Below are positions 11,856 through 36,444 of a DNA stretch of 39,910 nucleotides, piece after piece; positions within the stretch are counted from its first letter, which is position 1, and each line of letters starts with the position of its first letter. The notes under the pieces are model-generated. The model saw only the letters and a program-made list of their open reading frames with translations, was not told the DNA's origin and made no database searches. A program made the translations under genes and the position numbers. The DNA lies in the NCBI GenBank assembly GCA_964501635.1, contig CAZCTS010000001.1, positions 2,547 to 42,456 of the forward strand, read 5' to 3'. The DNA is from an uncultured Oscillospiraceae bacterium. Lineage in GTDB: Bacteria > Bacillota > Clostridia > Peptostreptococcales > Anaerovoracaceae.

Positions 11856-11885
11856 CGATTCAGAAGATGTCTTGAAACGGAAGTA

Positions 11886-11995: not shown

Positions 11996-12028
11996 GCATA
12001 ATGCCGGCACTAGGCCGGCATTATTTCG

Positions 12029-12103: not shown

Positions 12104-12124
12104 AATATTGAATTCTGTCCACTT

Positions 12125-12152
12125 ATTATATCACATTGCTCTTAAAATCCAA
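12125..12152 (-). promoter_or_regulatory. possible internal promoter upstream of tRNA-Gln
   Basis: The minus strand reads TTGGAT (12152-12147), a 16-nt spacer, then TATAAT (12130-12125). It lies in the AT-rich 72-nt spacer between tRNA-His and tRNA-Gln. Confidence 0.3.
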
Positions 12153-12175
12153 GAGGGTCCTGTGATATTTTTTGT

Positions 12176-12252
12176 TGGGGTGGGTAGTGGGAGTCGAACC
12201 CACGCATACAGGAGCCACAACCCTGGGTCTTGACCACTTGACGATACCCACC
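12176..12252 (-). tRNA. tRNA-His (anticodon GTG) with encoded G-1 and CCA
   Basis: The reverse complement is GGTGGGTATCGTCAAGTGGTCAAGACCCAGGGTTGTGGCTCCTGTATGCGTGGGTTCGACTCCCACTACCCACCCCA. An extra 5' G pairs with C73, and the anticodon loop is TTGTGGC. Confidence 0.9.
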
Positions 12253-12266
12253 ACAGCTGCATGAAT

Positions 12267-12343
12267 TGGCGACCCGGAACGGGCTCGAACCGTCGACCTC
12301 CAGCGTGACAGGCTGGCATTCTAACCAACTGAACTACCGGGCC
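12267..12343 (-). tRNA. tRNA-Asp (anticodon GTC), CCA encoded
   Basis: The reverse complement is GGCCCGGTAGTTCAGTTGGTTAGAATGCCAGCCTGTCACGCTGGAGGTCGACGGTTCGAGCCCGTTCCGGGTCGCCA. The anticodon loop is CTGTCAC. Confidence 0.9.
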
Positions 12344-12351
12344 ACTAATGG

Positions 12352-12428
12352 TGGTAGCGGCGAGTGGAGTCGAACCACCGACCTTCCGGGTATGAACCGG
12401 ACGCTCTAGCCAACTAAGCTACACCGCC
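12352..12428 (-). tRNA. elongator tRNA-Met (anticodon CAT), CCA encoded
   Basis: The reverse complement is GGCGGTGTAGCTTAGTTGGCTAGAGCGTCCGGTTCATACCCGGAAGGTCGGTGGTTCGACTCCACTCGCCGCTACCA. Positions 1:72 are paired and there is no GGG/CCC anticodon stem, so it is not an initiator. It resembles Bacillus elongator tRNA-Met. A lysidine-modified tRNA-Ile2 cannot be fully excluded by eye. Confidence 0.85.
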
Positions 12429-12461
12429 ACACTGTGGAAATAAGCCAACCACGCAAGAGAG

Positions 12462-12490
12462 ATAGTACCATTTTCGTTGCTCACTGTCAA
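12462..12490 (-). promoter_or_regulatory. sigma-A-type promoter of the tRNA cluster
   Basis: The minus strand reads TTGACA (12490-12485), a 17-nt spacer, then TACTAT (12467-12462), about 35 nt upstream of tRNA-Met. Confidence 0.6.
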
Positions 12491-12524
12491 TATCCGAAAT
12501 TGCTTTTTTAGCAAAGCTCCGGGG

Positions 12525-13919: not shown

Positions 13920-14025
13920 AAAGCGCTTCCTCCTTTGAATGGTACATATTATGCGGTCACAAGTCCTGTTTGTCAATGTGGAAGGAGATATGTTATACTT
14001 GAAACACTTTGAGGAGGTGACTGAT

Positions 14026-14970
14026 ATGACAGACAATCGATTTGATGTGGACGCGATACCCGGCGAGAAATGGTTCCCCAAGGAATCCCGTTTCGAAGAG
14101 GATATGCCCCTGTATTGGGGCGACTGGGGCGTGTCTTCCGAAGTGGAAAAGCTGAAGGCTGTGCTGATGCGCCGGCCCGGCAAAGAAGTGGAAAGCTTCG
14201 ATGCGGCGGCGGTCCGTTTTACCGACGAGCCTTTGGATGTGGATCTGATGCGCCGTCAGCACGACGATGTGACCGCGATCTACAGGGCGCACGGGGTCGC
14301 GGTGTATTACGTGGAGGAACAAAGGGAAGACCGGCCCAACGCAGTGTATTGCAGAGATCTGATGTTTATGACGCCGGAAGGCGCCATCATCACCCGGCCG
14401 GGCATGGCCGCCCGCCGGGGGGAAGAGCGCTACATCGCCCAGGCCCTGGCCAAGATCGGGGTCCCTATCGTCCGGACGATCAACGGAGAGGGAATATTCG
14501 AGGGGGCCAACGCCATGTGGGTGGACCGGCGCACCTGCGTGCTCTCCACCGGCATCCGCTGCAACAGGAGCGGCTACGAGCAGGTGGCGGAAGAACTTCG
14601 CCGGCAGGGCGTGACGGAGATCATTCCCATGCAGCTGCCCTACAGCAATATCCACATCGACGGGCTGCTGAATCCGGCCAGCAACGACACGGTGATCGGA
14701 CATGTGTCCCAGATTCCCTACGATGTGCTGGACGCCCTTAAACGAAAGGGCTACCGGATCTTGGAGGCGCCTTCCCAAACGGAAGTCCGCGCCCTGGCCT
14801 GCAACTTCGTGGCTTTGGAGCCGGGGCACATCCTGATGGCTCCGGGAACACCCAGGACCCAGGAATTGCTGGAGAAAAGCGGCATCCGGGTCACGACCGT
14901 CAATGTGTCGGAGATCCTGAAGGGCAGAGGATCGCTGCACTGCATCACCGCCTATCTCAAGAGAGGCTGA
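14026..14970 (+). CDS. amidinotransferase/arginine deiminase/DDAH-fold (guanidino-group modifying) enzyme
   Basis: Taken from ORF 13939..14970, with the start moved to ATG 14026 (GAGGAGG 8 nt upstream). The C-terminal GRGSLHCITAYL carries the nucleophilic Cys context of this superfamily. An internal HIDG His motif is present, and the length is about 314 aa. Confidence 0.7.
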   Translation: MTDNRFDVDAIPGEKWFPKESRFEEDMPLYWGDWGVSSEVEKLKAVLMRRPGKEVESFDAAAVRFTDEPLDVDLMRRQHDDVTAIYRAHGVAVYYVEEQREDRPNAVYCRDLMFMTPEGAIITRPGMAARRGEERYIAQALAKIGVPIVRTINGEGIFEGANAMWVDRRTCVLSTGIRCNRSGYEQVAEELRRQGVTEIIPMQLPYSNIHIDGLLNPASNDTVIGHVSQIPYDVLDALKRKGYRILEAPSQTEVRALACNFVALEPGHILMAPGTPRTQELLEKSGIRVTTVNVSEILKGRGSLHCITAYLKRG

Positions 14971-20888: not shown

Positions 20889-20967
20889 GAATCCCTCCCC
20901 TTGATCTGTGTTGGTCTGTTTGCCTAAAAGTATATCATATTACTTGGAGACCGTTAACAAAAATGGT

Positions 20968-20996
20968 TTGAAGCGGATCGCGATTTCGAGTATAAT
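20968..20996 (+). promoter_or_regulatory. sigma-A-type promoter of the decarboxylase operon
   Basis: TTGAAG (20968-20973), a 17-nt spacer, then TATAAT (20991-20996), about 85 nt upstream of the first start codon. Confidence 0.55.
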
Positions 20997-21078
20997 AAAC
21001 TTCAAATGTGATGATCCGGACACAGACAGGGTCAGCGGTTTCTTTTTGTCCGGACAGGGCAGGATGGAGGAAAACAAA

Positions 21079-22455
21079 ATGGGCACTACCTCAGCGGCGA
21101 AAAGAAGGATCCAGTCCATTCTGGACGCCGGCAGTTTTATGGAGATGGGCGAAAAGGTTCTCGCCCGAAATACGGACTTCGATCAGGAGTACGACCAAGT
21201 TTTTTCGGACGGCGTCATCACCGGCTACGGCACGGTGGAAGGCCGTCCGATTTATATTTTCAGCCAGGATCCTCAAGTGCTGGGCGGATCTCTTTCCGAG
21301 ATGCACGCCGTGAAAATTCTTCGCCTCTATGAAATGGCGCTGAAGACCGGAGCGCCGGTCGTCGCGCTGGCGGACAGCGCGGGGCTGCGCCTTGGCGAAG
21401 GGGCGGACGCACTCGATGCTTATGGAAGGATCTACAGGGGAATGACAAAAGCAAAGGGAAGGATCCCCCAGATCGCCGGCGTCTTCGGCAGTTGCGGCGG
21501 TGGAAGCGCCCTGATCCCGGCCCTCTGCGATTTTGTCTTCATGGAAAAACAGGCGAAGCTGTTCATCAATCCGCCGGCCGCCAGAACACAGGAGATCAAA
21601 AGGGCCGATGTGGCCGCCTCCCTGAGCGACTATCCCGCAGGGCGCGGCCTGAGCATGGGCAATGGAAGCGAAGAGGAGATCTGCCGGAAGATAAGGACAT
21701 TGATCTCTTATCTTCCTCTCTCCGACGAGGACCTTGTCCCCCGGGAAGTCTGCGCGGACGATCTGAACCGGCCCGCATCCAACCTTGAGGAGGGTCGGCG
21801 GGATCCCGCAGCCGTGCTGGTGGAAATAGCGGATCTGGGTTCCGTGTTCGAGCTGCAGAGGGAAGACTGTCCGGAGGTGATGATGGGATTTGCCCGTTTC
21901 AACGGTTCACCGGCGGGGGTCATCGGCAATGGGGGGAAAGGCTGTTTGACGTCGGAAGGCTGCGAAGCCATGGCGGATTTTGCGGATTTCTGCACGGCCT
22001 TCGGCATCCCCTTGCTGACGCTCACCGACACGGAAGGGTTTGCCGCGGACAGCGCCCAGGAAGCGCTCCTGCCTGCCGCCGCAGCCTATTTGCTCAGCGT
22101 CTGGGCTTCCTGCGAGGTCCCCAGAGTGAATGTGATCACCGGAAAAGCCTGGGGAAATGGGTACACCATTATGAACAGCAAGGGCTTGGGCGCCGATTTC
22201 GTCTTCGCCTGGAGCAGCGCCGACCTGCGGGTGTTTCCCGGAGAGGATGCTGTCCGGATCCTCTATGCAAGGGAACTGGCTTCCGCTGAAGATAAGAAAG
22301 CGTTCCTGAAAGAGAAGGCGGCAGCCTACGACGAAAAGGCGGGTATGGCCGCTTTTCTGGCCAGAGGCTATGTGGACAAGGTCATTGCGCCGGCGGACAC
22401 GCGAAAATATGTGATCGGCGCATTGGAAATGCTGTCCGACAAGCGGGCGTACTGA
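21079..22455 (+). CDS. acyl-CoA carboxyltransferase subunit (MmdA/GcdA/12S-like alpha subunit)
   Basis: Taken from ORF 20908..22455, with the start moved to ATG 21079 (GGAGG 8 nt upstream); ATG 21064 is an alternative. Motifs: DAGSFMEMG, DGVITGYGTVEGRPIYIFSQDPQVLGGSL, GSCGGGSALIPALCDFVFM, LLTLTDTEGF, which indicate a duplicated crotonase-like carboxyl transferase. Confidence 0.8.
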   Translation: MGTTSAAKRRIQSILDAGSFMEMGEKVLARNTDFDQEYDQVFSDGVITGYGTVEGRPIYIFSQDPQVLGGSLSEMHAVKILRLYEMALKTGAPVVALADSAGLRLGEGADALDAYGRIYRGMTKAKGRIPQIAGVFGSCGGGSALIPALCDFVFMEKQAKLFINPPAARTQEIKRADVAASLSDYPAGRGLSMGNGSEEEICRKIRTLISYLPLSDEDLVPREVCADDLNRPASNLEEGRRDPAAVLVEIADLGSVFELQREDCPEVMMGFARFNGSPAGVIGNGGKGCLTSEGCEAMADFADFCTAFGIPLLTLTDTEGFAADSAQEALLPAAAAYLLSVWASCEVPRVNVITGKAWGNGYTIMNSKGLGADFVFAWSSADLRVFPGEDAVRILYARELASAEDKKAFLKEKAAAYDEKAGMAAFLARGYVDKVIAPADTRKYVIGALEMLSDKRAY

Positions 22456-22468
22456 AGGAGAGCGAAGG

Positions 22469-22777
22469 ATGACACTCACGGAGATTTTCACCAAGGCGAT
22501 CATGAACACGATCCTGGGAATGGGCGTGGTTTTTTCGGTGCTGATTTTCATCGCGTTTATCATATCCCTGTTTAAATACCTGCCTGGCTTGCTGGAAAAG
22601 CGCAAAGGCAAAGGGAATGCCCTGATCCCCCGGGCGGAGGACCCGGTCCCTCAGGCGGACATCGGGGAAGGGGATCCGGTGCTGGCCGCGGTGATCACGG
22701 CAGCGGTCCACGCATTCATCCAGGAGGAAACCATTTCCACCGATGCCTATATCGTGCGCTCGATCCGCCGCAGCTGA
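22469..22777 (+). CDS. OadG-like small membrane subunit (gamma/delta) of Na+-translocating decarboxylases
   Basis: 102 aa. It has an N-terminal helix ILGMGVVFSVLIFIAFIISLF, then a charged linker and AAVITAAVHAFI, the typical OadG/MmdD/GcdD layout. Confidence 0.7.
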   Translation: MTLTEIFTKAIMNTILGMGVVFSVLIFIAFIISLFKYLPGLLEKRKGKGNALIPRAEDPVPQADIGEGDPVLAAVITAAVHAFIQEETISTDAYIVRSIRRS

Positions 22778-22814
22778 CCGCTCGAGCGCCAGCAATTAAT
22801 TGAAGGAGAAAACA

Positions 22815-23183
22815 ATGGAAATCTATTCGGTCACAGTCAACGGGCTCACCTACGAAGTACAGGTGGAAAAGAAAGCGAACAGTGGAATTTCCGCACCTGC
22901 GCCAAGGGCAGCCGCCGTATCGGCCCCGATCCCCGCGGAGAAGAAGATGGCGGCCCCGGCCGCGCTCCAGGGAGAAAAGATCACCGCCGGCGCAGCCGGA
23001 AAGGTCTGGAAGATCGTCACCGCCGAAGGGCAGAGCGTTGTGGCGGGCGAGCCGATCCTGATTCTGGAAGCCATGAAAATGGAGATCCCCGTGGTGGCGC
23101 CCAAGGACGGCGTACTGGGGCGGATCGTCGTCTCCGAAGGAAGCCCCGTGGAAGCGGGAGACCTGCTGGCGACCATTCATTAA
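22815..23183 (+). CDS. biotin carboxyl carrier protein (MmdC/GcdC/1.3S-like)
   Basis: ATG 22815 follows AAGGAGA (the listed ORF starts 15 nt earlier). It has an Ala/Pro-rich linker and the biotinylation motif LEAMKMEIPV. Confidence 0.85.
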   Translation: MEIYSVTVNGLTYEVQVEKKANSGISAPAPRAAAVSAPIPAEKKMAAPAALQGEKITAGAAGKVWKIVTAEGQSVVAGEPILILEAMKMEIPVVAPKDGVLGRIVVSEGSPVEAGDLLATIH

Positions 23184-23225
23184 TGGTCGCATCCCTGGAA
23201 TTGCACAAATCTACGGAGGACAACT

Positions 23226-24353
23226 GTGAGTTATATCGGTGAAACACTGGGCAATTTGCTGCGGCAGACCGCTTTTCTCAACCTGAGCCCGGGCAATCTG
23301 CTGATGGTGGCGGTCGCCTGCGGCTTCCTGTACCTGGCCATTGCCAAGGGCTATGAGCCGCTGCTGCTGGTCCCCATCGCTTTCGGCATGCTGCTGGTGA
23401 ATATCTATCCCCCGATCATGAGCGAAAGCGGCTTGCTCCACTATTTTTACTTGCTGGACGAGTGGGCGATCCTGCCGTCCCTGATATTCATGGGGGTGGG
23501 CGCCCTGACGGACTTCGGGCCGCTGATCGCCAATCCCCAAAGCTTTTTGCTGGGCGCCGCAGCCCAGTTCGGCATCTATGTGGCCTACATGGGCGCCATG
23601 CTCCTGGGCTTTGACGAAAAGGCCGCCGCGGCCATTTCCATCATCGGGGGCGCCGACGGCCCCACATCGATCTTTTTAGCCAGCAAGCTGGGCCAGGGCG
23701 CCCTGATGGGGCCCATCGCGGTGGCGGCCTACTCGTATATGGCCCTGGTGCCCATCATCCAGCCGCCCATCATGAAGGCCCTCACAACAAAGGAAGAGCG
23801 CATGATCAAGATGGCGCAGCTTCGCCACGTGAGCAAGCTGGAGCGGATCTGCTTTCCCATCGTGGTCACCATCGTAGTCTGCTCGATCCTGCCTTCCACC
23901 ACACCCTTGGTAGGCATGCTGATGCTGGGGAATCTGTTCCGGGAAAGCGGCGTCGTGCGCCAGCTGACGGAAACTGCGTCCAACGCCCTGATGTATATCG
24001 TCGTCATCCTGCTGGGCACGTCCGTGGGCGCCACCACCTCCGCGGAAGCGTTCCTGAACTGGTCCACGATCAAAATTGTGGCGCTGGGCCTTTTGGCCTT
24101 TGCTTTTGGAACCGCGGCCGGAGTGGTTTTGGGCAAGGTCATGTGCAAACTCAGCGGCGGCAAGGTGAACCCGCTCATCGGCTCGGCCGGCGTTTCCGCC
24201 GTCCCCATGGCGGCCCGGGTTTCCCAAAAGGTGGGCGCCGAAGCGGATCCGACCAACTTTTTGCTCATGCACGCCATGGGACCCAATGTGGCCGGGGTCA
24301 TCGGCACCGCCGTGGCGGCGGGCACGTTCATGGCCATGTTCGGGGTCGAGTAA
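23226..24353 (+). CDS. Na+-translocating decarboxylase beta subunit (OadB/MmdB/GcdB family)
   Basis: GTG 23226 follows GGAGGA. The 375-aa polytopic protein has typical family stretches (LLLVPIAFGMLLVN, IGGADGPTSIF, GSAGVSAVPMAARV). Confidence 0.85.
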   Translation: MSYIGETLGNLLRQTAFLNLSPGNLLMVAVACGFLYLAIAKGYEPLLLVPIAFGMLLVNIYPPIMSESGLLHYFYLLDEWAILPSLIFMGVGALTDFGPLIANPQSFLLGAAAQFGIYVAYMGAMLLGFDEKAAAAISIIGGADGPTSIFLASKLGQGALMGPIAVAAYSYMALVPIIQPPIMKALTTKEERMIKMAQLRHVSKLERICFPIVVTIVVCSILPSTTPLVGMLMLGNLFRESGVVRQLTETASNALMYIVVILLGTSVGATTSAEAFLNWSTIKIVALGLLAFAFGTAAGVVLGKVMCKLSGGKVNPLIGSAGVSAVPMAARVSQKVGAEADPTNFLLMHAMGPNVAGVIGTAVAAGTFMAMFGVE

Positions 24354-24370
24354 TGTACGAGGAGAATGGA

Positions 24371-25783
24371 ATGAAACCAATCGAAAAGAAGCCCGTCAAA
24401 ATCACCGAGACCATACTGCGGGACGCTCACCAGTCCCTGATCGCCACCCGCATGAGCACGGAGGATATGCTCCCGATCATGGAGAAAATGGATCAGGTGG
24501 GCTATTATTCCGTGGAATGCTGGGGCGGCGCCACCTTTGACACATCCCTGCGCTTCCTGAAGGAAGATCCCTGGCATCGCCTGCGGCTCCTGCGGAAAGG
24601 CTTTAAAAACACCAAGCTGCAGATGCTGTTGCGGGGGCAGAATATCCTGGGCTATCGCCATTATGCCGACGATGTGGTGGCTTATTTTGTACAAAAATCC
24701 ATCGCCAACGGCATCGACATCCTGCGGATCTTCGACGCCTTCAACGATCTTCGAAATCTGGAGACCGCGGTGCGCACCACCAAAAAAGAGGGGGCTCATG
24801 CCCAGATTGCCGTGTCCTACACCCTGGGAGACGCCTATACGCTGGCGTACTGGAAGGATCTTGTCCGGCGGATCAGCGATATGGGGGCGGATTCCATCTG
24901 CATCAAGGATATGGCCGGACTGCTGCTGCCCTATGCGGCGGAGGAGCTGGTGCGGGAGATCAAAAGCATCGTGGATATCCCCATCGATGTTCACAGCCAC
25001 TGCACCAGCGGGGTGGCGCCGATCTCCTACTTGAAAGCCATCGAGGCCGGATGCGACATCATCGACACGGCGATGTCACCCTTCGCCATGGGGACCAGTC
25101 AGCCCGCCACGGAGATCATGGTGGAAACGCTGAAGGGCAGCCCCTACGATACCGGCATGGATCAGAAGCTGCTGGCCGAGATCGCGGACTATTTTAGGCC
25201 CTTCCAGGAAAACGCGCTGGAAACCGGCCTCCTGAATCCCAGAATGATGGGCGTGGACATCAAGACTCTGCTGTATCAGGTCCCGGGCGGCATGCTGTCC
25301 AATCTGGTTTCCCAGCTGGCCGAGCAGGGCGCATCCGACAAATATTACGAAGTGCTGGCTGAGATCCCAAGGGTGCGAAGGGAACTGGGCGAACCGCCCC
25401 TGGTGACGCCTTCCTCCCAGATCGTGGGCACCCAGGCTCTATTCAATGTGCTTACAGGGGAGCGTTACAAGATGGTCACGAAGGAGACCAAGGCGGTCCT
25501 CCTGGGGGATTACGGCCAAACCGTAAAGCCCTTTGACCCGGAGATCCAGAAGAAGGTGATCGGCGAGGCCGTGCCCAAGACCTATCGCCCTGCGGACGAT
25601 CTGGCCCCGGAGCTGGACCGGCTGAAGCAGGAGATCGCCGAATGGACGCAGCAGGAGGAGGACGTATTGTCCTACGCCTTGTTTCCCCAGGTGGCCCTGG
25701 ATTTCTTCCGCTATCGAAAAGCCCAGCAGGATGGGATCGACCTGTCCCTGGCGGACACGGAAAACGGCGCCTACCCGGTATAG
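24371..25783 (+). CDS. oxaloacetate decarboxylase alpha / transcarboxylase 5S-type carboxyltransferase, without biotinyl domain
   Basis: Taken from ORF 24143..25783, with the start moved to ATG 24371 (GAGGAGA at 24359-24365). It has a TIM-barrel CT signature: ITETILRDAHQSLIATRMSTEDM, YSVECWGGATFD, LLRGQNILGYRHY, CIKDMAGLL. The protein ends at about 470 aa with no AMKM motif. Confidence 0.85.
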   Translation: MKPIEKKPVKITETILRDAHQSLIATRMSTEDMLPIMEKMDQVGYYSVECWGGATFDTSLRFLKEDPWHRLRLLRKGFKNTKLQMLLRGQNILGYRHYADDVVAYFVQKSIANGIDILRIFDAFNDLRNLETAVRTTKKEGAHAQIAVSYTLGDAYTLAYWKDLVRRISDMGADSICIKDMAGLLLPYAAEELVREIKSIVDIPIDVHSHCTSGVAPISYLKAIEAGCDIIDTAMSPFAMGTSQPATEIMVETLKGSPYDTGMDQKLLAEIADYFRPFQENALETGLLNPRMMGVDIKTLLYQVPGGMLSNLVSQLAEQGASDKYYEVLAEIPRVRRELGEPPLVTPSSQIVGTQALFNVLTGERYKMVTKETKAVLLGDYGQTVKPFDPEIQKKVIGEAVPKTYRPADDLAPELDRLKQEIAEWTQQEEDVLSYALFPQVALDFFRYRKAQQDGIDLSLADTENGAYPV

Positions 25784-28684: not shown

Positions 28685-28716
28685 TTGACAAATCCGCTAA
28701 ACTTGTGTAATATAAT
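28685..28716 (+). promoter_or_regulatory. sigma-A-type promoter of the Tad-like locus
   Basis: TTGACA (28685-28690), a 17-nt spacer, then TAATAT (28708-28713), which overlaps TATAAT (28711-28716). It lies in a conspicuously AT-rich 150-bp divergent intergenic region. Confidence 0.6.
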
Positions 28717-28744
28717 GTTAAATTATGGAAAATGGAGACAAGGC

Positions 28745-29383
28745 ATGAAATGGAGAACCACCCTGGGCATCTCGCTGATCGTCCTGAGTTTGGCCCTTAT
28801 GCTCTTCTGGGAATTCCGGGGCAGGGATGTCCTAACAATGACGCAGATATTGACAGCCTCCCGGGATATCCTGCCCGGGGAAAGGCTGCTGGCCCAGGAT
28901 GTGGCAAGCACTCCAGTTCCTCCGGAAAATGTGATCCAGGGCGCGTTGGCGCCAAGCGATGCAAAACTGATCCTGGGGCGCAACGCCATTTATCCGCTGT
29001 CGGCCAGGCAGCAGCTGAGCGCCTCGTATTTCAAGGAGGATCAGGATATCCTGCGGCGGAACGAATCGATATTCCCCATCCGCCCCCAATGGATCGGATC
29101 CATGAGCGGCGCGGTCCGGCCGGGGGATGTGGTCAGTCTGGTCTCTTCTTCGTCGGAGGAAGGCCTTGGGATGTATCGAGTCGCCTATGTGATGGACCAG
29201 GCGGGCGGCCTTCTGGAATGGCCGGCAGCGGACGCTGGGGATCTGCTTGGACGCAGCCGGGGCCCCGATCCGGCCGCCAGTCTGGAGATCGTCTGCACCT
29301 TGGAGGACTACCTGAATATTTTGCGAAGCCAGACAGCGGCAGCGCCCAAAGATCTCATCGTGTTTATGGAGGGCGGGTTATGA
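28745..29383 (+). CDS. CpaB/RcpC-like pilus assembly protein (TM anchor + SAF-like domain)
   Basis: Taken from ORF 28685..29383, with the start moved to ATG 28745 (GGAGA 7 nt upstream). It has an N-terminal helix TLGISLIVLSLALMLFW followed by TASRDILPGERLLAQDVASTPVP, the usual SAF-domain opening of CpaB proteins. Confidence 0.6.
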   Translation: MKWRTTLGISLIVLSLALMLFWEFRGRDVLTMTQILTASRDILPGERLLAQDVASTPVPPENVIQGALAPSDAKLILGRNAIYPLSARQQLSASYFKEDQDILRRNESIFPIRPQWIGSMSGAVRPGDVVSLVSSSSEEGLGMYRVAYVMDQAGGLLEWPAADAGDLLGRSRGPDPAASLEIVCTLEDYLNILRSQTAAAPKDLIVFMEGGL

Positions 29384-30183
29384 GCGGGATCTATACCTTT
29401 TTCGGGGTAGACAACAAATGCGGCACCTCCATGGTGTGCCAATCCGTAGCCGAATACATCGCCGGAGAAATGCCGGACTGGAATGTGCTCCTCATCCATA
29501 CCGAAGGGGATGTGGGCACCGGGTATGCAGCCTGCTCGGGTGAATCCACCGGGCGGATCCGGCCGGGATTGTCCAAAGGCTTGTTCGACCCCCAGGAGGT
29601 GGTCGCGCGATCCCAATGGCAGAAGAATCTTCATTTTATCGCCGGCGCGGACCCTCTGGAGGAAGAAGGGAAATATCACCCGGATCTGTCGAACGCGCTC
29701 CTGCGGCGTCTCAAGAACTGCTTCGATCTGATCCTCTGCGACAGCGGCAGCCAAATTGAAAACGGTTTGGCTCTGGGGTCTCTGTTTGCCGCGGACGGGA
29801 TCTTTCTGGTCATGGTCCAGGCCGAAGGAGCCGTTCGCAGATTCGAGCGACTGATCCGTTTGTACCTGAAGCTCAATGTGTCGACGATGGGTTGTTTGAT
29901 CAACCGCTTTCGCGAGAAAAGTCCCTATACACCGGCTTATCTGCGGGAACGGCTGGACCAGTTCCCCGGCGCGTTTTACACCGTGGGAGAATCCCCTATG
30001 GGCATTCTGGCCGAAACGGAGGGTCGCTCTCTCATGAATTACCGGGACCGGGCTTTTCGAAAAGATGTCTGCCGGATCGGCGACCTCATCCTGGCCGACG
30101 CGGGAGCGCAAAGGGTCCCGGAGAAAGGCAGGGCATCGTGGAACCTTTTGAAATTCAAGAATACATCAAGAATCGAAGCGTAG
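29380..30183 (+). CDS. TadZ/CpaE-like ParA/MinD-fold protein with degenerate Walker A
   Basis: This is the 3' two-thirds of listed ORF 28732..30183. ATG 29380 overlaps the upstream stop (ATGA), with GGAGGG 6 nt upstream. The P-loop position reads FFGVDNKCGTSMV instead of KGGxGK(T/S). LILCDSG is Walker-B-like. Confidence 0.6.
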   Translation: MSGIYTFFGVDNKCGTSMVCQSVAEYIAGEMPDWNVLLIHTEGDVGTGYAACSGESTGRIRPGLSKGLFDPQEVVARSQWQKNLHFIAGADPLEEEGKYHPDLSNALLRRLKNCFDLILCDSGSQIENGLALGSLFAADGIFLVMVQAEGAVRRFERLIRLYLKLNVSTMGCLINRFREKSPYTPAYLRERLDQFPGAFYTVGESPMGILAETEGRSLMNYRDRAFRKDVCRIGDLILADAGAQRVPEKGRASWNLLKFKNTSRIEA

Positions 30184-31577
30184 AAGCGGCAGAGCTCCCC
30201 CTTGAATCGAGCGCAGCGTTTGAATTCGGCGATCTCTGCGATCAGATCAAAGCCGCTTTTTTCAAGGAGTGGGAGAGAGAAGAGAATCCCAAGTCCATGC
30301 TGGACATCCAGAAGCGGGCCATCATCGGCTACGAAAAGGAGTCCGCCTATTTTAAGGATCGAATCGGAGACCTGCTTCGGAGGATGGGCGCCTGGGACAC
30401 CCCCCATCCTCCCTGGTACACGACGCTGACGGAAGGAGTCTATCAGGAAAACTGGGGGCTGGCAGGCATCAGCGAATGGTTTGGCCCGGATTTTTCCAGC
30501 AGCAGCTCGGCAAAAATTATCGGGGAGCGCATCTACTTTCTTCAAGAAGGGAAAATGGCGCTCAAGCCCCAGAAGATATCCAAGGCCAGAAAAGAGCAGC
30601 TGATCCGGGCATTTCTCCTGTTGAACCCGGAAGAGAGACTGGACAAGACCTATCACGAGACCTATCTGCTGGACGGGACCCGGGTGACGATCTACGCCGA
30701 GCCCATGGCGAAAAAGGAGCAGGCCGCCATCGTGTTTCGCAGGTATATCATTCCGATCCTGAGCTTCGAGGAACAGGCCAGGAGGAAAACGATCCCGGCG
30801 GAGGCCATCCCGTTCCTGCGGCAAATGGTGCAAATCGGATTTAATGTGGTGTTCCTGGGCGCTGTTCGAACAGCCAAAACCACTTTTCTCACCACCTGGC
30901 AGAGTTATGAGGACCCCTCGCTGGAAGGGGTCATGGTGGAGACGGATCCGGAGATCCCCTTGCATCGGATCCTTCCCCAAGCGCCTATACTTCAGCTTCT
31001 CGCCGATGGGCAGGAGTTGTCTAGGATATCCAAAAGCCTGCTTCGAAGCGACGCCGACTACTTCATCCTGGCGGAGGCAAGAGACGGCATCGCTTTGAAC
31101 ACGGCGGTCAAGATCGCCGGAAAAGGAACGAAACGGATGAAGCTGACGTTCCATTCCGGCGATCCGGATCAATTTCCCCTGGAGGCGGCAGAGGAGATCG
31201 TCCAGGCTACCGGAGGGGATCTGTCCATGACCATGAGAAGGGTGGCCTCCGGCTTCGATTATCTGTTTCATTTTATTCAACTGTCCGACAAGCGGGAGAA
31301 GCGGCTGAACAGCATTCGCGAATTGAACTGCAGCGAGGATGGCCGGATCACCGTCTCTCCGATCTGCGCCTACGACGCGCTGGACGACAGCTGGATGTTC
31401 TACGACCGGGTCGGAGCGCAGAAGCGCGGCTACGCGCTCACATCGGACCCCAAGGCGTTCCAAGATATGCAAAAGTGCCTGAGGGAGCTCGCCGCCGCTT
31501 CACCCATACGCAATGGACCGGCGCCGATAAAGGAGAAGGAAACCCATGGACCTGTTCCGCATGGATCTGTTGATTGA
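30138..31577 (+). CDS. TadA/CpaF-like secretion ATPase (GspE/VirB11 superfamily)
   Basis: In frame with ORF 29892..31577. I propose GTG 30138 as the start; ATG 30298 is the alternative. Motifs: Walker A variant FLGAVRTAKTTFL (30858-30884), ETDPEIPL (Asp-box-like), DYFILAEARD (Walker B-like), MKLTFHSGD (His-box-like). Confidence 0.65.
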   Translation: MEPFEIQEYIKNRSVEAAELPLESSAAFEFGDLCDQIKAAFFKEWEREENPKSMLDIQKRAIIGYEKESAYFKDRIGDLLRRMGAWDTPHPPWYTTLTEGVYQENWGLAGISEWFGPDFSSSSSAKIIGERIYFLQEGKMALKPQKISKARKEQLIRAFLLLNPEERLDKTYHETYLLDGTRVTIYAEPMAKKEQAAIVFRRYIIPILSFEEQARRKTIPAEAIPFLRQMVQIGFNVVFLGAVRTAKTTFLTTWQSYEDPSLEGVMVETDPEIPLHRILPQAPILQLLADGQELSRISKSLLRSDADYFILAEARDGIALNTAVKIAGKGTKRMKLTFHSGDPDQFPLEAAEEIVQATGGDLSMTMRRVASGFDYLFHFIQLSDKREKRLNSIRELNCSEDGRITVSPICAYDALDDSWMFYDRVGAQKRGYALTSDPKAFQDMQKCLRELAAASPIRNGPAPIKEKETHGPVPHGSVD

Positions 31578-32493
31578 ACTGCTGATATTTTTCGTGTTCG
31601 CCGCGGGCCTGGCCTGCCTGTTTCTGGAGCATATCCGGCTGCTGCGTCTGCACTGGCGGATGCGAAGACGGCTCCGCCGCGCGAAGAAGCGAAGCCGGCA
31701 GCTCTCTCCGCCTTTGCGCTATGCCCGAAGGCTTCTGCAGGCAAGCTTTCAGAATCCGCCGGGGGAGAATGTGTTTCTTTTGCTTCTGGCTTTGATTTTT
31801 CTGTTGGTCATGTTCCTTGCGCTTCAAAGCTTTTCGCCCGGCACAGCTCTCCTGTTTTCCGGTATCGCCACTTCGCTTCCGGTTTTTCTGCTGGCGGTCC
31901 GCCTGGAGATCCGCAGAAAGAAAGGCAGCCGGGAAGGCTTGCCTCTGGTGTCGGAGCTGCACCGTCATTACTGGGCCAATCACCGGAACATTTATTCGGC
32001 GATGGAGGCCACGCTGAACGGAAACGGGACTTTCCCGGTATTCAGGAAATTGCTCTTTCAGCTCCTTCTGAAACTGCGCAGCACCGGGAATCCCGCGGAG
32101 ATCCGGGAAGCGGTGGACCAGTTTTCCTTTTCGGCGGGCACGGTGTGGGCCAGGATGCTGGGCTTGTGCATCCGGATGGCCTCGGAAAGCGGCAGCGACA
32201 TTTCGCTGGGCCTTCAGGACATCTCCAGCCAGCTGAGCGAGGCCAACACCCGGGCCGAAGAGCGGAGCCGGATGAACAGCGAGGCGCTTCGAATGACGGT
32301 CTTTCTGGTGCCCGCTCTCTACGCCGGGACCATGGGGATCGCCATGTACTATCTGGGCCTGGAGCCGGTCCGCCTGATGCGCAACCAGTTTGCCACGCCG
32401 GAAGGACTATTGTTCTTTATGATCATTCTGCTGTTTTTCGTGATCAATCTGGCGGTCATGGAGTTGCTTCAGAATCAAAAACTGGATTACTGA
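31546..32493 (+). CDS. TadB-like (GspF/T2SSF-type) inner-membrane platform protein
   Basis: 315 aa, with AAGGAGAAGGA upstream. It overlaps the ATPase gene by 32 nt. The layout is an N-terminal TM, two central TMs, a cytoplasmic helical region and two C-terminal TMs, as in TadB. Confidence 0.6.
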   Translation: MDLFRMDLLIELLIFFVFAAGLACLFLEHIRLLRLHWRMRRRLRRAKKRSRQLSPPLRYARRLLQASFQNPPGENVFLLLLALIFLLVMFLALQSFSPGTALLFSGIATSLPVFLLAVRLEIRRKKGSREGLPLVSELHRHYWANHRNIYSAMEATLNGNGTFPVFRKLLFQLLLKLRSTGNPAEIREAVDQFSFSAGTVWARMLGLCIRMASESGSDISLGLQDISSQLSEANTRAEERSRMNSEALRMTVFLVPALYAGTMGIAMYYLGLEPVRLMRNQFATPEGLLFFMIILLFFVINLAVMELLQNQKLDY

Positions 32494-32505
32494 CAGGAGA
32501 GGGTC

Positions 32506-33153
32506 ATGAGCTTGGGCGTGTTGTTTTTAACAGATGTGTTCTTTTGGGCCGGCTGCTATTTTCTCTATCGGAGAGAATCGCTGCGCCTTGCGGAAAGGGC
32601 CGCCCGATGGGGGCGGTCGGCCGGAGCGAAAGCCCGTTCCAGCGGCGCGGCCAAAGGTCTCCGCAGTTATGCCCGCCACCGCAGAAGAAATGTCCGGGAG
32701 AGGGAGTTGAGCGAGTGTCTGGCGTATATGCAGAATATGGTGGCGCTCGGAAGAGGGAGCGCCATGAGCGGAGAATTGCTGCTGGCCGAGCTGGCGGATC
32801 TCTGCGACAGCCTGCAGAGCGTCTTCTGGGAAATGTCCCACAGGCTGCGCCTGTGCGACGGAGAAGGGGCGGAAACGATTTTTTGCCGGGCTTTCGAACA
32901 GGATTATGCGCAGGATGTGGCCAAGCTGTTCATCGAATGGGAACGCATTTCACCCCAGGAACTGGGCAGCACGGTGGGCGCCTACCGGAACCTTCTGCTG
33001 CAAAAGAGGCGGACCCGGCAAAAGAACAGGGATGAATGGATGAGCGACCTGGCCTATTTCCCCGTGGTGGTCAACGCCATGGCCGTGCTCCTCAACTTCA
33101 TTTATGTGGCCTATTTTATTGAACAGCGGAATTCGTTAATGGGTATTCTTTAA
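32506..33153 (+). CDS. TadC-like (short GspF-type) membrane protein
   Basis: 215 aa, with AGGAGAGGG upstream. The layout is an N-terminal TM, a helical cytoplasmic domain and a C-terminal TM (YFPVVVNAMAVLLNFIYVAYFI). The assignment rests mainly on position and topology. Confidence 0.5.
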   Translation: MSLGVLFLTDVFFWAGCYFLYRRESLRLAERAARWGRSAGAKARSSGAAKGLRSYARHRRRNVRERELSECLAYMQNMVALGRGSAMSGELLLAELADLCDSLQSVFWEMSHRLRLCDGEGAETIFCRAFEQDYAQDVAKLFIEWERISPQELGSTVGAYRNLLLQKRRTRQKNRDEWMSDLAYFPVVVNAMAVLLNFIYVAYFIEQRNSLMGIL

Positions 33154-33174
33154 GATACCGGGAAGGAGTGGAGC

Positions 33175-33336
33175 ATGAAACAGTTGATCGTACTGGTGGC
33201 GACCGTGATGCTGGGCATCGCCATCGGAGGGATGGTGATGGGTTTCAACGGCCAGGCAGACCAGGTCCGGGACAGCGTATCAGGTAATATTAACGACATT
33301 ATCACAGAGTACGACGCCACAGCCGCAATCGATTGA
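33175..33336 (+). CDS. 53-aa single-helix pilin-like mini-protein (no canonical Flp motif)
   Basis: Not in the ORF track because it is shorter than 60 aa. GGAAGGAG lies 6 nt upstream. My own translation: MKQLIVLVATVMLGIAIGGMVMGFNGQADQVRDSVSGNINDIITEYDATAAID. Confidence 0.55.
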   Translation: MKQLIVLVATVMLGIAIGGMVMGFNGQADQVRDSVSGNINDIITEYDATAAID

Positions 33337-33345
33337 GAAGACGCT

Positions 33346-33510
33346 ATGAAACAGTTGATCGTGATGGTCGCGGCGCTGGCCCTGGGGCTGCAGTTGTTTG
33401 CCATGATCGCCGGAAGCGGGGAGGACAGCGTGGCCTCCACGCTGCGCCAGGTTTGGGTGCATGAGATCGAAGCCAGAAGGATGGAAGAAAGTCCGGAGGG
33501 GGAGCTATGA
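33346..33510 (+). CDS. 54-aa single-helix pilin-like mini-protein, paralogue of the preceding gene
   Basis: My own translation: MKQLIVMVAALALGLQLFAMIAGSGEDSVASTLRQVWVHEIEARRMEESPEGEL. Its first 17 nt are identical to those of the previous gene. Its stop overlaps the next start (ATGA at 33507-33510). Confidence 0.5.
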   Translation: MKQLIVMVAALALGLQLFAMIAGSGEDSVASTLRQVWVHEIEARRMEESPEGEL

Positions 33511-33935
33511 AGCAGTTTCTGGTCCTGCTGGCGGCGCTGCCGCTCCTGCTGATCTTCCTCCTGCAATTCTCCCTGGATCAGATGAACCACGCCAGGATAG
33601 GGCTCTTGTCGGATTGTGTGTATGTGGCAAGAGAACAGGCCAGGCAGAAGGGCTGCTTCACCACGGAGATCTGCGAGGATCTTCGGACAAGGATCTCGTC
33701 CATCCTGGATATCGATCCGGCATTGGTGGACATCCAGGCCACGGACACGCCAAGGTATCGGCTGCTGGGGGATGCCTGGATGGACGGGGGTTTCGAAAGA
33801 GGACTTATATACTACAAGGTCTCGGTCCCGATGGGACAGATCATGGCGGGGCCCAGGCTCTTCGGCATCCGGGAGGACGACAACCGTCTGGTCTTTTCCA
33901 TCGACAGCTTTACGGCCAGCGAATTATTGCCCTGA
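33507..33935 (+). CDS. TadE-like pseudopilin-type protein
   Basis: 142 aa. The N-terminus MKQFLVLLAALPLLLIFLLQFSL resembles the hydrophobic TadE N-terminal segment (..ALVLPVLLLL..), but without the preceding leader and Glu. Confidence 0.55.
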   Translation: MKQFLVLLAALPLLLIFLLQFSLDQMNHARIGLLSDCVYVAREQARQKGCFTTEICEDLRTRISSILDIDPALVDIQATDTPRYRLLGDAWMDGGFERGLIYYKVSVPMGQIMAGPRLFGIREDDNRLVFSIDSFTASELLP

Positions 33936-33977
33936 TCCCACGCCGGGCAGGACTCAGGCTTCGGGTGGAGAACTGTC

Positions 33978-34448
33978 ATGAAGATATTTGTCGTTTTTTT
34001 GGCCATCCTGCTCCTCAATGTGAGCTATTTGAGCCAGTCGGCGGACCTGGACCGGTATTCATTGCTCCAGCGCCAACTGAAGGTCCTGGCTGAAGAAGGG
34101 GCTTGCGGAGCGGCGCTGTTCCGGGATGAGGACGAATACGCTCTCGGAAGGCTGTGCGTGGACCGGCAGGCAGCGGAGGCGTATCTAGATTTTCTGCTTG
34201 CAAACCAGAGAAGCCTGACGGAGACGGATCCCTCTGCCACGGTCGAGGGGCATATAGAAGTGTTCGACGATGCGTCAGGATACGAGGACGCAGGCCGCTA
34301 CGGCATTTCCGGCGCCAGTCCCGCAGTGGTGGTGGAACTGGAATGGAGCGGAGAGGATCTGTTCCGGCTTCCCTTTGTTTCGGTCACCCGTCTTCGGCGA
34401 AGCGCCACGTATCAATGGGCCGGAGGCTTGACAAGCGCCCTCGAATAG
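33978..34448 (+). CDS. hypothetical TadF/TadE-like N-terminally anchored protein
   Basis: 156 aa, with GGTGGAG upstream. It has an N-terminal helix MKIFVVFLAILLLNVSYL. It is the last gene of the cluster. I recognise no family. Confidence 0.5.
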   Translation: MKIFVVFLAILLLNVSYLSQSADLDRYSLLQRQLKVLAEEGACGAALFRDEDEYALGRLCVDRQAAEAYLDFLLANQRSLTETDPSATVEGHIEVFDDASGYEDAGRYGISGASPAVVVELEWSGEDLFRLPFVSVTRLRRSATYQWAGGLTSALE

Positions 34449-34455
34449 TTATAAT
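34428..34455 (+). promoter_or_regulatory. consensus sigma-A promoter for the thrS leader
   Basis: TTGACA (34428-34433), a 16-nt spacer, then TATAAT (34450-34455). It is embedded in the 3' end of the preceding ORF. Confidence 0.7.
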
Positions 34456-34461
34456 GAATCT

Positions 34462-34690
34462 GTTAAATTGAAATACAAAAAAAGCGATGACGAGAAAGGC
34501 CGCATTCGCCCTGCACAAGAGAAGGACTCCCAGGCTGGAAGGGTCCGCAGGGAAATGATTGGCTCACCCTCTCCGAGCTGCACCCGAGGAGGGCTGCCGG
34601 CAGAAACTGTCGTTAAGCAAAAGAAGTATTCCGTTTGGGTGGAACCGCATTTTTGCCCCAAACACCTGAGGGTGTCTGGGGTTTTTCATT
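34462..34690 (+). promoter_or_regulatory. T-box riboswitch (threonine-specific leader of thrS)
   Basis: The stem I opening is AGCGATGACGAGAAAGG, with an AGAGA bulge (34518-34522) and a distal CTGGAAGGG loop. The T-box sequence is GGGTGGAACCGC (34637-34648). The antiterminator pairing GTTTGGG (34633-34639) with CCCAAAC (34657-34663) competes with the terminator CCCCAAACACC (34656-34666) / GGTGTCTGGGG (34671-34681) plus TTTTT. The candidate Thr specifier is ACU (34606-34608) in GAA-ACU-G. Confidence 0.8.
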
Positions 34691-34704
34691 TCAGGAGGAA
34701 GCAA

Positions 34705-36444
34705 ATGGCAAACATTCGATTCGAAACGTTGGAAGACAAGAAGGCGCTGTGGCACACATCGTCTCACATCATGGCCCACGCGGTGCAGCGTCTCTTTCCC
34801 GAGGCAAAATTCGGCATAGGTCCCGCCATCGACAACGGGTTCTACTATGATATCGATTTGGATCACAGGTTTACCGATGAAGATCTTCTGTCAATCGAAA
34901 AAGAAATGGCCGGGATCATCAAAGAGGACCTGCCTTTGGTATGCAAGGCTATGAGCAGGGACGCGGCCTTGAAATTCATGGCGGACCGGGGAGAGCCCTA
35001 CAAGGTCGAACTGATCAACGATCTGCCCCAGGACGTGCAGATCACGTTCTATGAGCAGGGCGATTTCGTGGACCTGTGCGCCGGTCCCCATCTTCCGTCC
35101 ACGGGGGGGATCAAAGCCGTCAAGCTGCTCAGCGTTGCCGGAGCCTACTGGCGGGGCAGCGAGAAGAACAAGATGCTCCAGCGGATCTACGGGATCACCT
35201 TCCCCAAGAAGTCCATGCTGGATGAATATCTGCTGAAGCTGGAGGAAGCCAAGCGGCGGGATCACCGGAAGATCGGCAAGGAAATGGACCTGTTCGCTAT
35301 TATGGACGAAGGCCCGGGTTTTCCGTTTTTCCTGCCCAGGGGGATGATCATCCGCAACCAGCTGGAAGCCTTCTGGCGCAAAGCCCACGCCGACAGAGGC
35401 TACGACGAGATCAAGACGCCTCTGATCCTGAACGAGGAACTGTGGCATACCTCCGGACACTGGGATCACTATAAAGAGAATATGTATTTTACGAAGATCG
35501 ACGACATGGATTACGCCATCAAGCCCATGAACTGCCCGGGATCCCTGCTGGCCTACAAACGCAAGATGTACAGCTACCGGGACTTTCCCATGCGGATCGC
35601 CGAGCTGGGCCAGGTGCACCGCCACGAGCTTTCGGGCGCCCTCCACGGACTGATGCGGGTGCGGACCTTTACCCAGGACGATGCGCATATCTATATGCTC
35701 CCCGAGCAGACGAAGGACGAGCTGAAAGGGGTCATCCAATTCATCGGCTACATTTATGGGATTTTCGGCTTCCATTACCGCATTGAACTGTCCACCCGGC
35801 CGGAGAACTCCATGGGCAGCGCCCAGGAATGGGAATCGGCGGAACAGGCCTTGAAGGAAGCCATGGACGAGTTGGGCATGGCGTATAAAATCAATGAAGG
35901 GGACGGCGCGTTCTACGGGCCGAAGCTGGATTTCCATCTGGAGGACAGCATCGGCAGGACCTGGCAGTGCGGCACGATCCAGCTGGATTTCCAGATGCCC
36001 CAGCGCTTTGACATCACCTATGTGGGCGCAGACGGCGAAAAGCATCGCCCCGCCATGATCCATCGGACGATCTTCGGCAGCATGGAGCGCTTTATCGGGA
36101 TCCTGATCGAACACTTCGAAGGGAAGTTCCCCCTGTGGCTGGCCCCCACGCAAGTAAAGCTGCTCACCGTAACGGAAAAATTCAACGATTTCGCCCAGGG
36201 CTTAAAAGAACAGCTGGCGGCGGAAGGCTTCCGGGTGGAACTGGACGGCCGCAACGAAAAGATCGGCTATAAAATCCGGGAAGCCCGCAACGCCAGAGAC
36301 TCCTATCTGATCGTCATCGGCGAAAAGGAAGAGGAGTCCGGGCTCTTCCCGGTCCGCTCCAGCAAGGAGGGAGAACTGGAACCCATGACGATGGAACAGT
36401 TCATCCAACGCCTGCATCGGGAGATCAACGAAAAAGCCTATTGA
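34705..36444 (+). CDS. thrS: threonine--tRNA ligase, short form lacking the N-terminal TGS domain
   Basis: Taken from ORF 34468..36444, with the start moved to ATG 34705 (AGGAGGA 5 nt upstream, immediately after the T-box terminator). Landmarks: editing-domain HTSSHIMAHAV, class II motifs FRDFPMRIAELGQVHRHE, GLMRVRTFTQDDAHIY, GAFYGPKLDF, and a C-terminal anticodon-binding domain. Confidence 0.9.
   Translation: MANIRFETLEDKKALWHTSSHIMAHAVQRLFPEAKFGIGPAIDNGFYYDIDLDHRFTDEDLLSIEKEMAGIIKEDLPLVCKAMSRDAALKFMADRGEPYKVELINDLPQDVQITFYEQGDFVDLCAGPHLPSTGGIKAVKLLSVAGAYWRGSEKNKMLQRIYGITFPKKSMLDEYLLKLEEAKRRDHRKIGKEMDLFAIMDEGPGFPFFLPRGMIIRNQLEAFWRKAHADRGYDEIKTPLILNEELWHTSGHWDHYKENMYFTKIDDMDYAIKPMNCPGSLLAYKRKMYSYRDFPMRIAELGQVHRHELSGALHGLMRVRTFTQDDAHIYMLPEQTKDELKGVIQFIGYIYGIFGFHYRIELSTRPENSMGSAQEWESAEQALKEAMDELGMAYKINEGDGAFYGPKLDFHLEDSIGRTWQCGTIQLDFQMPQRFDITYVGADGEKHRPAMIHRTIFGSMERFIGILIEHFEGKFPLWLAPTQVKLLTVTEKFNDFAQGLKEQLAAEGFRVELDGRNEKIGYKIREARNARDSYLIVIGEKEEESGLFPVRSSKEGELEPMTMEQFIQRLHREINEKAY

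Follow-up and report, generated by a model that had tools for sequence, protein, structure and literature searches.

A nine-gene block between nfnAB and thrS of an uncultured Clostridia bacterium and its likeness to a far-diverged Tad-type filament machine

Layout of the nine-gene block

The stretch of DNA analysed here (39,910 nt, referred to as the window; contig CAZCTS010000001.1 of assembly GCA_964501635.1) comes from an uncultured Oscillospiraceae bacterium, and all coordinates are given as window positions. By ORF calling on the window, nine tightly packed open reading frames (ORFs), designated g1 to g9, were located on the + strand at 28745-34448 between nfnAB and thrS, the identity of both flanks being taken from the Pfam annotation of relatives. 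A first-pass annotation had described this block as a highly diverged Tad/Flp-like apparatus of a monoderm, preceded by a single sigma-A-like promoter, and its likeness to such machines is the subject of this analysis. The features of the block are as follows.

28685..28713, + strand: predicted sigma-70-like promoter TTGACA-17-TAATAT, with 10/12 consensus match, in an AT-rich intergenic spacer
28745-29383, + strand: g1, 212 amino acids (aa), transmembrane (TM) helix and SAF domain, CpaB/RcpC-like
29380-30183, + strand: g2, 267 aa, predicted MinD/ParA fold with a degenerate P-loop, TadZ/CpaE-like by fold and position
30138-31577, + strand: g3, 479 aa, GTG start, predicted secretion ATPase of the TadA/CpaF lineage
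31546-32493, + strand: g4, 315 aa, polytopic membrane protein with a predicted GspF-like cytoplasmic helical bundle, TadB/C-like platform
32506-33153, + strand: g5, 215 aa, N- and C-terminal TM helices flanking a predicted GspF-like bundle, second platform-like protein
33175-33336, + strand: g6, 53 aa, leaderless single helix, starts MKQLIVLVATVMLGIAIGG, candidate major fibre subunit
33346-33510, + strand: g7, 54 aa, g6 paralogue, starts MKQLIVMVAALALGLQLF
33507-33935, + strand: g8, 142 aa, N-terminally anchored, starts MKQFLVLLAALPLLL, candidate minor subunit
33978-34448, + strand: g9, 156 aa, N-terminally anchored, starts MKIFVVFLAILLL, candidate minor subunit or wall-associated factor

The ORF of g1 opens at TTG 28685; since the promoter occupies 28685-28713, the start of g1 was assigned to ATG 28745, which is preceded by a GGAGA Shine-Dalgarno sequence 7 nt upstream. 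A purine-rich Shine-Dalgarno-like sequence was found upstream of all nine starts, the weakest one being that of g7. Adjacent genes overlap by ATGA at 29380 and 33507, by 46 nt at 30138-30183 and by 32 nt at 31546-31577, and the remaining gaps between genes measure 9-42 nt. The promoter, the nine same-strand ORFs and every overlap of the first-pass annotation were thus recovered. The promoter of thrS is a perfect consensus (TTGACA-16-TATAAT, 34428-34455) that overlaps the end of g9; thrS therefore has a promoter of its own and the nine-gene unit ends there. GC content of the block is 0.54-0.59 against 0.51-0.61 over the window, and no compositional break was detected; this and the core-gene surroundings are as described in the first pass. 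From these sequence features, a single operon is the best explanation of the nine genes.

Predicted core proteins and candidate subunits

Four motifs, all present in g3 and conserved in its family, point to a secretion ATPase: a variant Walker A G241-AVRT-A246-K247-T248 (GxxxxAKT), an Asp box E268-TDPE272, a Walker B/catalytic Glu segment D305-ADYFILA-E313-A-R315-D and a His box T337-F-H339, with G241, K247, E313 and H339 invariant or nearly so. The N-terminus MEPFEIQEYIK is conserved in the homologues as well. No direct Pfam match was obtained for g3 itself, and 58 of its 70 full-length relatives (18-49% identical) matched Pfam T2SSE (PF00437), the best one at 1.1e-22. When a narrow g3 family profile was run against PDB, CpaF was recovered at 1.6e-5; designed Kelch repeats, the top matches of this profile, were judged spurious. 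A broad profile built from 70 sequences gave CpaF at 1.8e-49, archaeal GspE at 7e-35, FlaI at 4.5e-30, VirB11 (HP0525) at 5e-28 and PilT at 3e-20. By these sequence comparisons g3 belongs to the GspE/VirB11 secretion-ATPase superfamily, as the first-pass annotation had called it, and because CpaF was the best PDB match with both profiles, ahead of FlaI, VirB11 and PilT, it is assigned to the TadA/CpaF lineage as a far-diverged member. Searching 1.84 billion representative proteins with the g3 family profile yielded 572 matches at E<=0.001 and 97 at E<=1e-30, and so few matches indicate that this ATPase lineage is small and isolated.

At residues 241-249 of g3 (window 30858-30884) the sequence reads GAVRTAKTT, with Ala in place of the canonical Gly before Lys. 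This Ala is invariant in the clade of the window, and relatives alternate at the position (AK in Paenibacillus tyrfis versus GK in Paenibacillus sp. FSL H8-0034); Ala is therefore tolerated there and is no mark of decay.

For g1, a TM helix was located at residues 3-25, and matches were obtained to Pfam SAF (3.5e-4) and to NCBIfam pilus_cpaB (TIGR03177). The latter model was matched by 15 of 18 g1 family members, the best value being that of g1 (4.9e-9), all under the curated cutoff. These matches characterise g1 as a membrane-anchored CpaB-like SAF protein, in agreement with the CpaB/RcpC-type call of the first pass. The family profile of g2 matched the ParA-family structure 3ea0 (3e-11) and MinD (1.8e-8) in PDB, by which the ParA/MinD fold proposed earlier is assigned to g2. 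Its P-loop, GxDHKCGTS, is without GK[ST], the P-loop Lys not being in the usual place in the alignment, so that g2 may be a nucleotide-binding scaffold or a pseudo-ATPase; a receiver-like N-domain is missing too. The name TadZ for g2 is based on fold and position.

Neither g4 nor g5 gave a sequence match in Pfam (T2SSF), NCBIfam or PDB profile searches, the PDB matches being noise; g5 matched Pfam Spore_III_AB weakly (0.012, versus a cutoff of 32.5 bits). Confident AlphaFold2 models were obtained from the family alignments (pLDDT 82 and 84.6 for g4 and g5, respectively) and compared by Foldseek. The top three matches of g4 were OutF and EpsF (probability 0.98 and 0.97, respectively) and SpoIIIAB (0.75), and those at the top for g5 were OutF (0.95) and EpsF (0.72). 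OutF and EpsF are GspF proteins, matched here through their cytoplasmic domains, and SpoIIIAB is GspF-like too; no other structure was matched with high probability. The E-values of the top matches were 0.3-0.9. Alignment of g4 with g5 by hhalign revealed no paralogy beyond the TM helix. The earlier call of two GspF-like membrane proteins thus stands for the predicted fold and fails for the sequence, since no profile ties g4 or g5 to T2SSF. Platform proteins with GspF-type cytoplasmic bundles are supported at fold level only, a limit set by weak Foldseek E-values. Taken together with g3, the profile and structure comparisons place the ATPase inside the GspE superfamily by sequence and tentatively assign the platform proteins to GspF from their predicted fold.

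The two small single-helix proteins g6 and g7 have the size of about 53 aa given in the first pass. N-termini are M-K-Q-L-I-V in g6 and g7, M-K-Q-F-L-V in g8 and M-K-I-F-V-V in g9, followed by about 22 hydrophobic residues, and as each of the four proteins begins at the earliest possible start codon of its ORF, no leader can exist. Both g6 and g7 were also without the Flp motif (a leader ending in Gly and a G/XXXXEY site), as had been reported, and the small proteins of distant relatives are leaderless too (MRNIL..., MGKLL..., MKEFII...). Across both the g6 and g7 families M1, K2, L13 and G14 are invariant. Conservation of the N-terminal segment against the rest was 65% versus 21% for g6 (N-terminal 24 aa versus tail), 59% versus 34% for g7 and 65% versus 40% for g8. 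In type IV pilins the conserved N-terminal helix packs the core of the fibre, and the pattern of ordinary signal peptides is opposite to this gradient; judged from the alignments, the gradient in g6-g8 is type IV pilin-like. Mature Flp pilin has the same size as g6 and g7 (53-54 aa).

In profile searches g8 and g9 gave no Pfam or PDB match, the PDB matches being noise, and their families gave faint matches only, to DUF4320 (1/16 members, 0.15) and PF13400 (2/13, 0.012). From the TadE/TadF-like, N-terminally anchored character ascribed to them earlier, the anchoring was confirmed and the TadE/TadF homology was not. An A24 (TadV) prepilin peptidase was found neither in the 40-kb window (Pfam scan of the main ORFs, and a search for multi-TM proteins with GxGD) nor in the Pfam lists of relatives' loci (the Pfam-annotated ones), in line with the absence noted at first.

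For the nine proteins as a whole, Pfam returned only the marginal SAF domain, the T2SSE, T2SSF, TadE and Flp models all missing them, and NCBIfam returned sub-threshold CpaB, MinD and TadA/TrbB/VirB11 matches. Pfam being nearly blind to the block, the description of it as deeply diverged is accurate.

Conservation of the block and its relatives in Paenibacillus and on pHT77

Homologues of the ATPase were numerous in metagenomes, none of them with a precomputed Pfam domain, and in long-contig relatives the same nine genes lie between nfnAB and thrS. A scan of one genome per species gave 21 loci, from metagenome-assembled genomes (MAGs) of Clostridia, Oscillospiraceae or Anaerovoracaceae and from P. 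tyrfis. By single-pass tblastn, all nine genes were found in order in 13 loci and most genes in the remaining ones, and more loci were gained through iterative search or small-ORF inspection. Counting Clostridia MAGs, several Paenibacillus and the Bacillus thuringiensis plasmid pHT77, about 24 loci besides the window keep the block as an ordered unit, which bears out its reading as one conserved module. Cultured carriers of the module are P. tyrfis, P. periandrae and B. thuringiensis HD73.

The nfnAB neighbour is retained in relatives with an ATPase only 59-64% identical to that of the window, which argues for vertical inheritance of the block. In the relative locus L003, the block proteins are 49-76% identical to those of the window and the flanking NfnA, NfnB, ThrS, L-PSP and SBP 87-91%; the identity of ThrS to relatives is 89%. 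By these sequence comparisons, the block is inherited vertically yet evolves much faster than its neighbours.

Four chromosomal loci of Paenibacillus (L029, L030, L034 and L031) share the nine-gene architecture and order with the window, and their ATPases score on Pfam T2SSE and have a canonical GKT/S P-loop. By iterative search, g1, g2, g4 and g9 were linked to all four loci and g5 and g8 to L031; with g3 and pHT77 included, g1, g2, g3, g4 and g9 link to all the Paenibacillus modules and pHT77, the links of g5 and g8 being confined to L031 and pHT77. Housekeeping genes flank L029 and L034. Next to the P. tyrfis copy lie a borderline TraG P-loop match, an M23 peptidase and a GGDEF response regulator, and next to the copy of Paenibacillus sp. 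FSL H8-0034 (L027) lie large CARDB/PKD surface proteins.

When plasmids were searched with g3 by tblastn, the best matches were found in 72-82 kb plasmids of B. cereus and B. thuringiensis (30% identity, 84% coverage, 1e-41). Among these, pHT77 (L035, NC_020239.1) is typed as conjugative, with a MobQ relaxase, and carries the module at 6864-14606 in the order SAF, 378-aa protein, ATPase, 323-aa, 296-aa, small proteins of 47 and 48 aa, 176-aa, 128-aa and M23 peptidase. The module lies directly downstream of the MobQ relaxase, a VirD4-like protein, TopB and ArdC, and a separate operon close by contains TrbL-, DUF87- and NlpC/P60-type genes. Counterparts in pHT77 were found for g1-g5, g8 and g9. 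The hhalign probability between g8 and its full-length pHT77 homologue was 95%; for g9, jackhmmer found a relationship (1e-31) to the M23 peptidase of pHT77, in its N-terminal half, the hhalign probability being only 43%. Public annotation labels the module proteins of Paenibacillus and pHT77 as SAF-domain protein, ATPase or hypothetical only. In the conjugation papers on the B. cereus group that were consulted, only a 'VirB11' homologue is mentioned, which was reported in the tra region of pAW63 (PMC1196294, PMC9673590), and the literature searched does not describe any Tad-like module on conjugative plasmids of Gram-positive bacteria. In Bacilli the module also travels with or sits beside conjugation-type genes, and in the lineage of the window it is chromosomal and core-like.

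Genes for cyclic di-GMP (c-di-GMP) adjoin Paenibacillus copies, namely a GGDEF response regulator in L022 (1-4905) and GGDEF, PilZ and EAL genes in L034 (149-2771 and 14518-15597), which hints at c-di-GMP control. A more distant 511-aa relative of the ATPase was seen in L032 (812-5346); it is accompanied by a 48-aa protein and by an actin-like gene of the ParM/ALP type, the gene order differs, and the context resembles that of a plasmid. A g9-like ORF stands at the start of the same contig.

Several further observations were made around the block. The leader of thrS (about 250 nt, window 34428-34705) contains a T-box-like GGGTGGAACCGC and a strong terminator hairpin at about 34655-34692, directly before the ribosome-binding site; in a search against Rfam it matched neither T-box nor any other RNA family, even at E<=1. 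Upstream of the L-PSP gene and nfnAB, a cluster of the decarboxylase sodium-pump type (Carboxyl_trans, OAD_gamma, biotin-lipoyl, OAD_beta and HMGL/PYC_OADA) is predicted at window 20908-25783 from the Pfam annotation of syntenic relatives. A cluster of five tRNA genes lies at window 11924-12428 on the - strand. Two long ORFs had no Pfam match: a 360-aa one at window 10773-11855, and an 814-aa one at window 602-3046 (- strand), which overlaps a 407-aa ORF with about 10 TM helices at 2051-3274 (+ strand) and is probably the shadow of this membrane-protein gene.

Interpretation and comparison with known systems

The component set and order of the block match those of Tad/Flp systems (Caulobacter Cpa, Aggregatibacter Tad and Bifidobacterium breve Tad), the first pass having named the order of Gram-positive Tad loci such as those of Bifidobacterium, with CpaB-like, TadZ/CpaE-like and TadA/CpaF-like proteins, two platforms, small helix-only subunits and two larger anchored proteins, and CpaF is the best solved match of the g3 family. 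The block differs from these systems in being without a class III signal peptide, a G/XXXXEY site and TadV in cis, in the Ala before the Walker A Lys of g3, in a g2 that is without the receiver-like N-domain and the usual P-loop Lys, and in g5 being a short platform protein with two TM helices; a secretin is lacking, as expected for a monoderm. GspF-fold platforms, CpaB and TadZ-like proteins are parts of type IV filament/Tad machines and not of type IV secretion (PMC10191384, PMC6668835). A CpaF-like ATPase together with two GspF-fold platforms and with CpaB-like and ParA-like proteins is taken as diagnostic of a type IV filament/Tad machine rather than of a type IV secretion system or SpoIIIA. 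The reading that we consider probable, with appreciable room for doubt, is that the block is one operon by which a monoderm encodes a complete Tad-like (type IVc-like) filament machine, though one that has diverged very far; from this reading we infer fibre assembly and a role in adhesion or cell-cell contact.

In such a machine, g2 would scaffold or position the g3 hexamer beneath the g4-g5 platform, and ATP-driven movements of g3 would rotate the platform and raise g6/g7 from the membrane into a thin helical fibre, which g8 and g9 could prime or cap. A collar formed by g1 on the outer face of the membrane might guide the fibre through the wall. With the hydrophobic helix (M-K-Q...) standing at the very start of the subunits, these would need no prepilin peptidase. 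Adhesion or cell-cell contact would be the likely role, and in Bacilli mating-pair formation could be helped.

Several points weigh against a Tad-like filament machine. No fibre has been seen, and its assembly is wholly an inference. Type IV prepilins are defined by a leader ending in Gly or Ala, often by Glu5, and by obligatory cleavage by prepilin peptidase (PMC10191384), and none of g6-g9 has a class III signal peptide, Gly/Ala at -1 or Glu5; genes for a prepilin peptidase and for true pilins may lie in another part of the genome. It would also be possible to read g6 and g7 as Sec signal peptides, each with a short secreted peptide attached, a small residue being common near position 28 of g6 (Ala in the majority of 15 family members). 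The homology of g8 and g9 to TadE/TadF is not demonstrated, the N-terminal anchor and operon position being what fits. The E-values of the GspF-fold matches in Foldseek are weak (0.3-1.3), and helical bundles easily match by chance. With Ala for Gly in the P-loop of g3 and a degenerate P-loop in g2, activity is assumed.

The pHT77 locus bears on an alternative that we hold to be unlikely, in which the block is an accessory of conjugation or type IV secretion, a 'VirB11-like' part of a Gram-positive mating apparatus, left over from an integrated element or else still engaged in DNA transfer. The best plasmid matches of g3 in B. cereus and B. thuringiensis, the position of the pHT77 module after the MobQ relaxase, VirD4-like protein, TopB and ArdC and near the TrbL/DUF87/NlpC/P60 operon, the borderline TraG match and M23 peptidase beside the P. 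tyrfis copy, the ParM-like actin gene adjoining a distant relative and the VirB11-type gene of the pAW63 tra region (PMC1196294) all speak for it. However, neither a relaxase, VirD4, VirB4 or integrase gene nor a compositional break was seen in the 40-kb window; the VirB4, coupling-protein and relaxase genes that surround the pHT77 module are missing from the window and from its syntenic relatives alike. Retention of the nfnAB neighbour at 59-64% ATPase identity argues for vertical inheritance, L029 and L034 also lie amid housekeeping genes, and the nine genes are all intact. An integrated element in the window was ruled out by synteny, composition and gene content. VirB11 is of the same ATPase superfamily (about 5e-28), and the plasmid homologues are labelled VirB11 (PMC1196294), but CpaF, archaeal GspE and FlaI score better, and the GspF-fold, CpaB-like and ParA-like partners belong to the type IV filament set and are not parts of type IV secretion. 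A match to a conjugation module had been named in the first pass as grounds for rejecting its proposal. Such a homologous module does exist in the transfer region of pHT77, but it adds context and no refutation, since it is itself an uncharacterised Tad-like module and no conjugation genes surround the copy in the window.

A machine without an external fibre is equally unlikely. The block would then encode a short pseudopilus or piston, or else a complex in the membrane that exports protein or takes up DNA, and g6-g9 would be its stationary membrane subunits or its substrates. Type II secretion and Com systems do build short or transient filaments from the same core (PMC10191384), the subunits lack canonical pilin signatures, and a wall hydrolase has an N-terminal part related to g9. 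On the other side, among solved structures the one nearest to the ATPase is CpaF, the motor of the Tad pilus, and the conservation gradient of g6-g9 is pilin-like. The size of g6 and g7 is likewise that of mature Flp pilin.

It is quite improbable that small secreted peptides (signals or bacteriocin-like) are made from g6 and g7, the hydrophobic N-terminus being an ordinary Sec signal peptide and the rest of the block bearing no relation to the two proteins. The short n-region (MK) followed by a hydrophobic h-region, and the small residues near a possible cleavage site (residues 26-28) in many g6 members, would suit such precursors, but conservation is highest in the hydrophobic segment (65% versus 21%, with L13 and G14 invariant), opposite to typical signal peptides, the N-terminal motif is common to g8 and g9 too, and in most complete loci g6 and g7 keep the same place, after the platform genes and before g8/g9.

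A sporulation channel of the SpoIIIA type, the other refuting match named in the first pass, was rejected and is very improbable: although the SpoIIIAA-AH channel also has a secretion-type ATPase, the GspF-fold SpoIIIAB and small membrane proteins, and although g5 matched Spore_III_AB weakly and SpoIIIAB stood third among the Foldseek matches of g4, both matches are explained by SpoIIIAB itself having the GspF fold, no Pfam match to the SpoIIIAA, AC, AD, AE, AF, AG or AH families was found in the nine proteins, and the gene content (SAF, ParA-like and two platforms) and order differ.

A described likeness from monoderms is a divergent Tad-like cluster of TANB77 (uncultured Clostridia), which was recognised mainly by structure and has CpaB, TadZ/CpaE and TadA followed by TM-anchored pilin-like proteins (PMC11680825). 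It differs from the block in a fused TadC-TadB (693 aa), a 640-aa ATPase with a TM helix and larger pilin-like proteins (143-621 aa), partly with promoters of their own, and it is a different family (PMC11680825). As this cluster has a CpaB-like gene too, the occurrence of one without a secretin, which the first-pass annotation had regarded as unusual, is not so in Clostridia (PMC11680825). The Paenibacillus modules L029, L030, L034 and L031 and that of pHT77 resemble the window in their leaderless small proteins and differ from it in ATPases with a canonical GKT/S P-loop and a second platform of about 300 aa; pHT77 further has an extra 176-aa gene and a g9-like domain fused to the M23 peptidase, and it sits in a transfer region, which the window copy does not.

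Since divergent Tad-like clusters are known from uncultured Clostridia (PMC11680825; generic systems PMC6668835), the block is not categorically new. The nine-gene family is uncharacterised, the first pass having proposed an uncharacterised machine for fibre assembly or secretion, and in the literature searched no description of this family or of leaderless pilins was found. What appears to be new from the sequences is that class III signal peptides and a peptidase encoded in cis are missing across the family, and that the module recurs within a conjugative transfer region of Gram-positive bacteria. New as well is that standard profiles overlook the core proteins almost completely.

A bolder form of the Tad-like reading, which we put forward tentatively and do not think likely, is that the machine works without class III signal peptide and peptidase, 'born mature' subunits being polymerised by a CpaF-like motor, and that it makes a mating fibre on plasmids such as pHT77. 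Conjugation in Gram-positive bacteria is generally held to proceed without pili.

If true, the finding would touch the definition of the family, because type IV filaments are defined by prepilins that are cleaved by a peptidase (PMC10191384), and a conserved machine whose sole candidate subunits are uncleavable would show the peptidase step to be dispensable. Genome screens would need broader targets, as standard Pfam models miss every core protein here. A region of a B. cereus-group plasmid labelled 'T2SS/T4P/T4SS-family ATPase', which had drawn no remark before, would be recast as a full Tad-like module, which raises the question of whether some Gram-positive conjugative plasmids carry a mating or adhesion fibre. 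In uncultured Clostridia, the machine is probably a main surface appendage, and a fast-evolving one.

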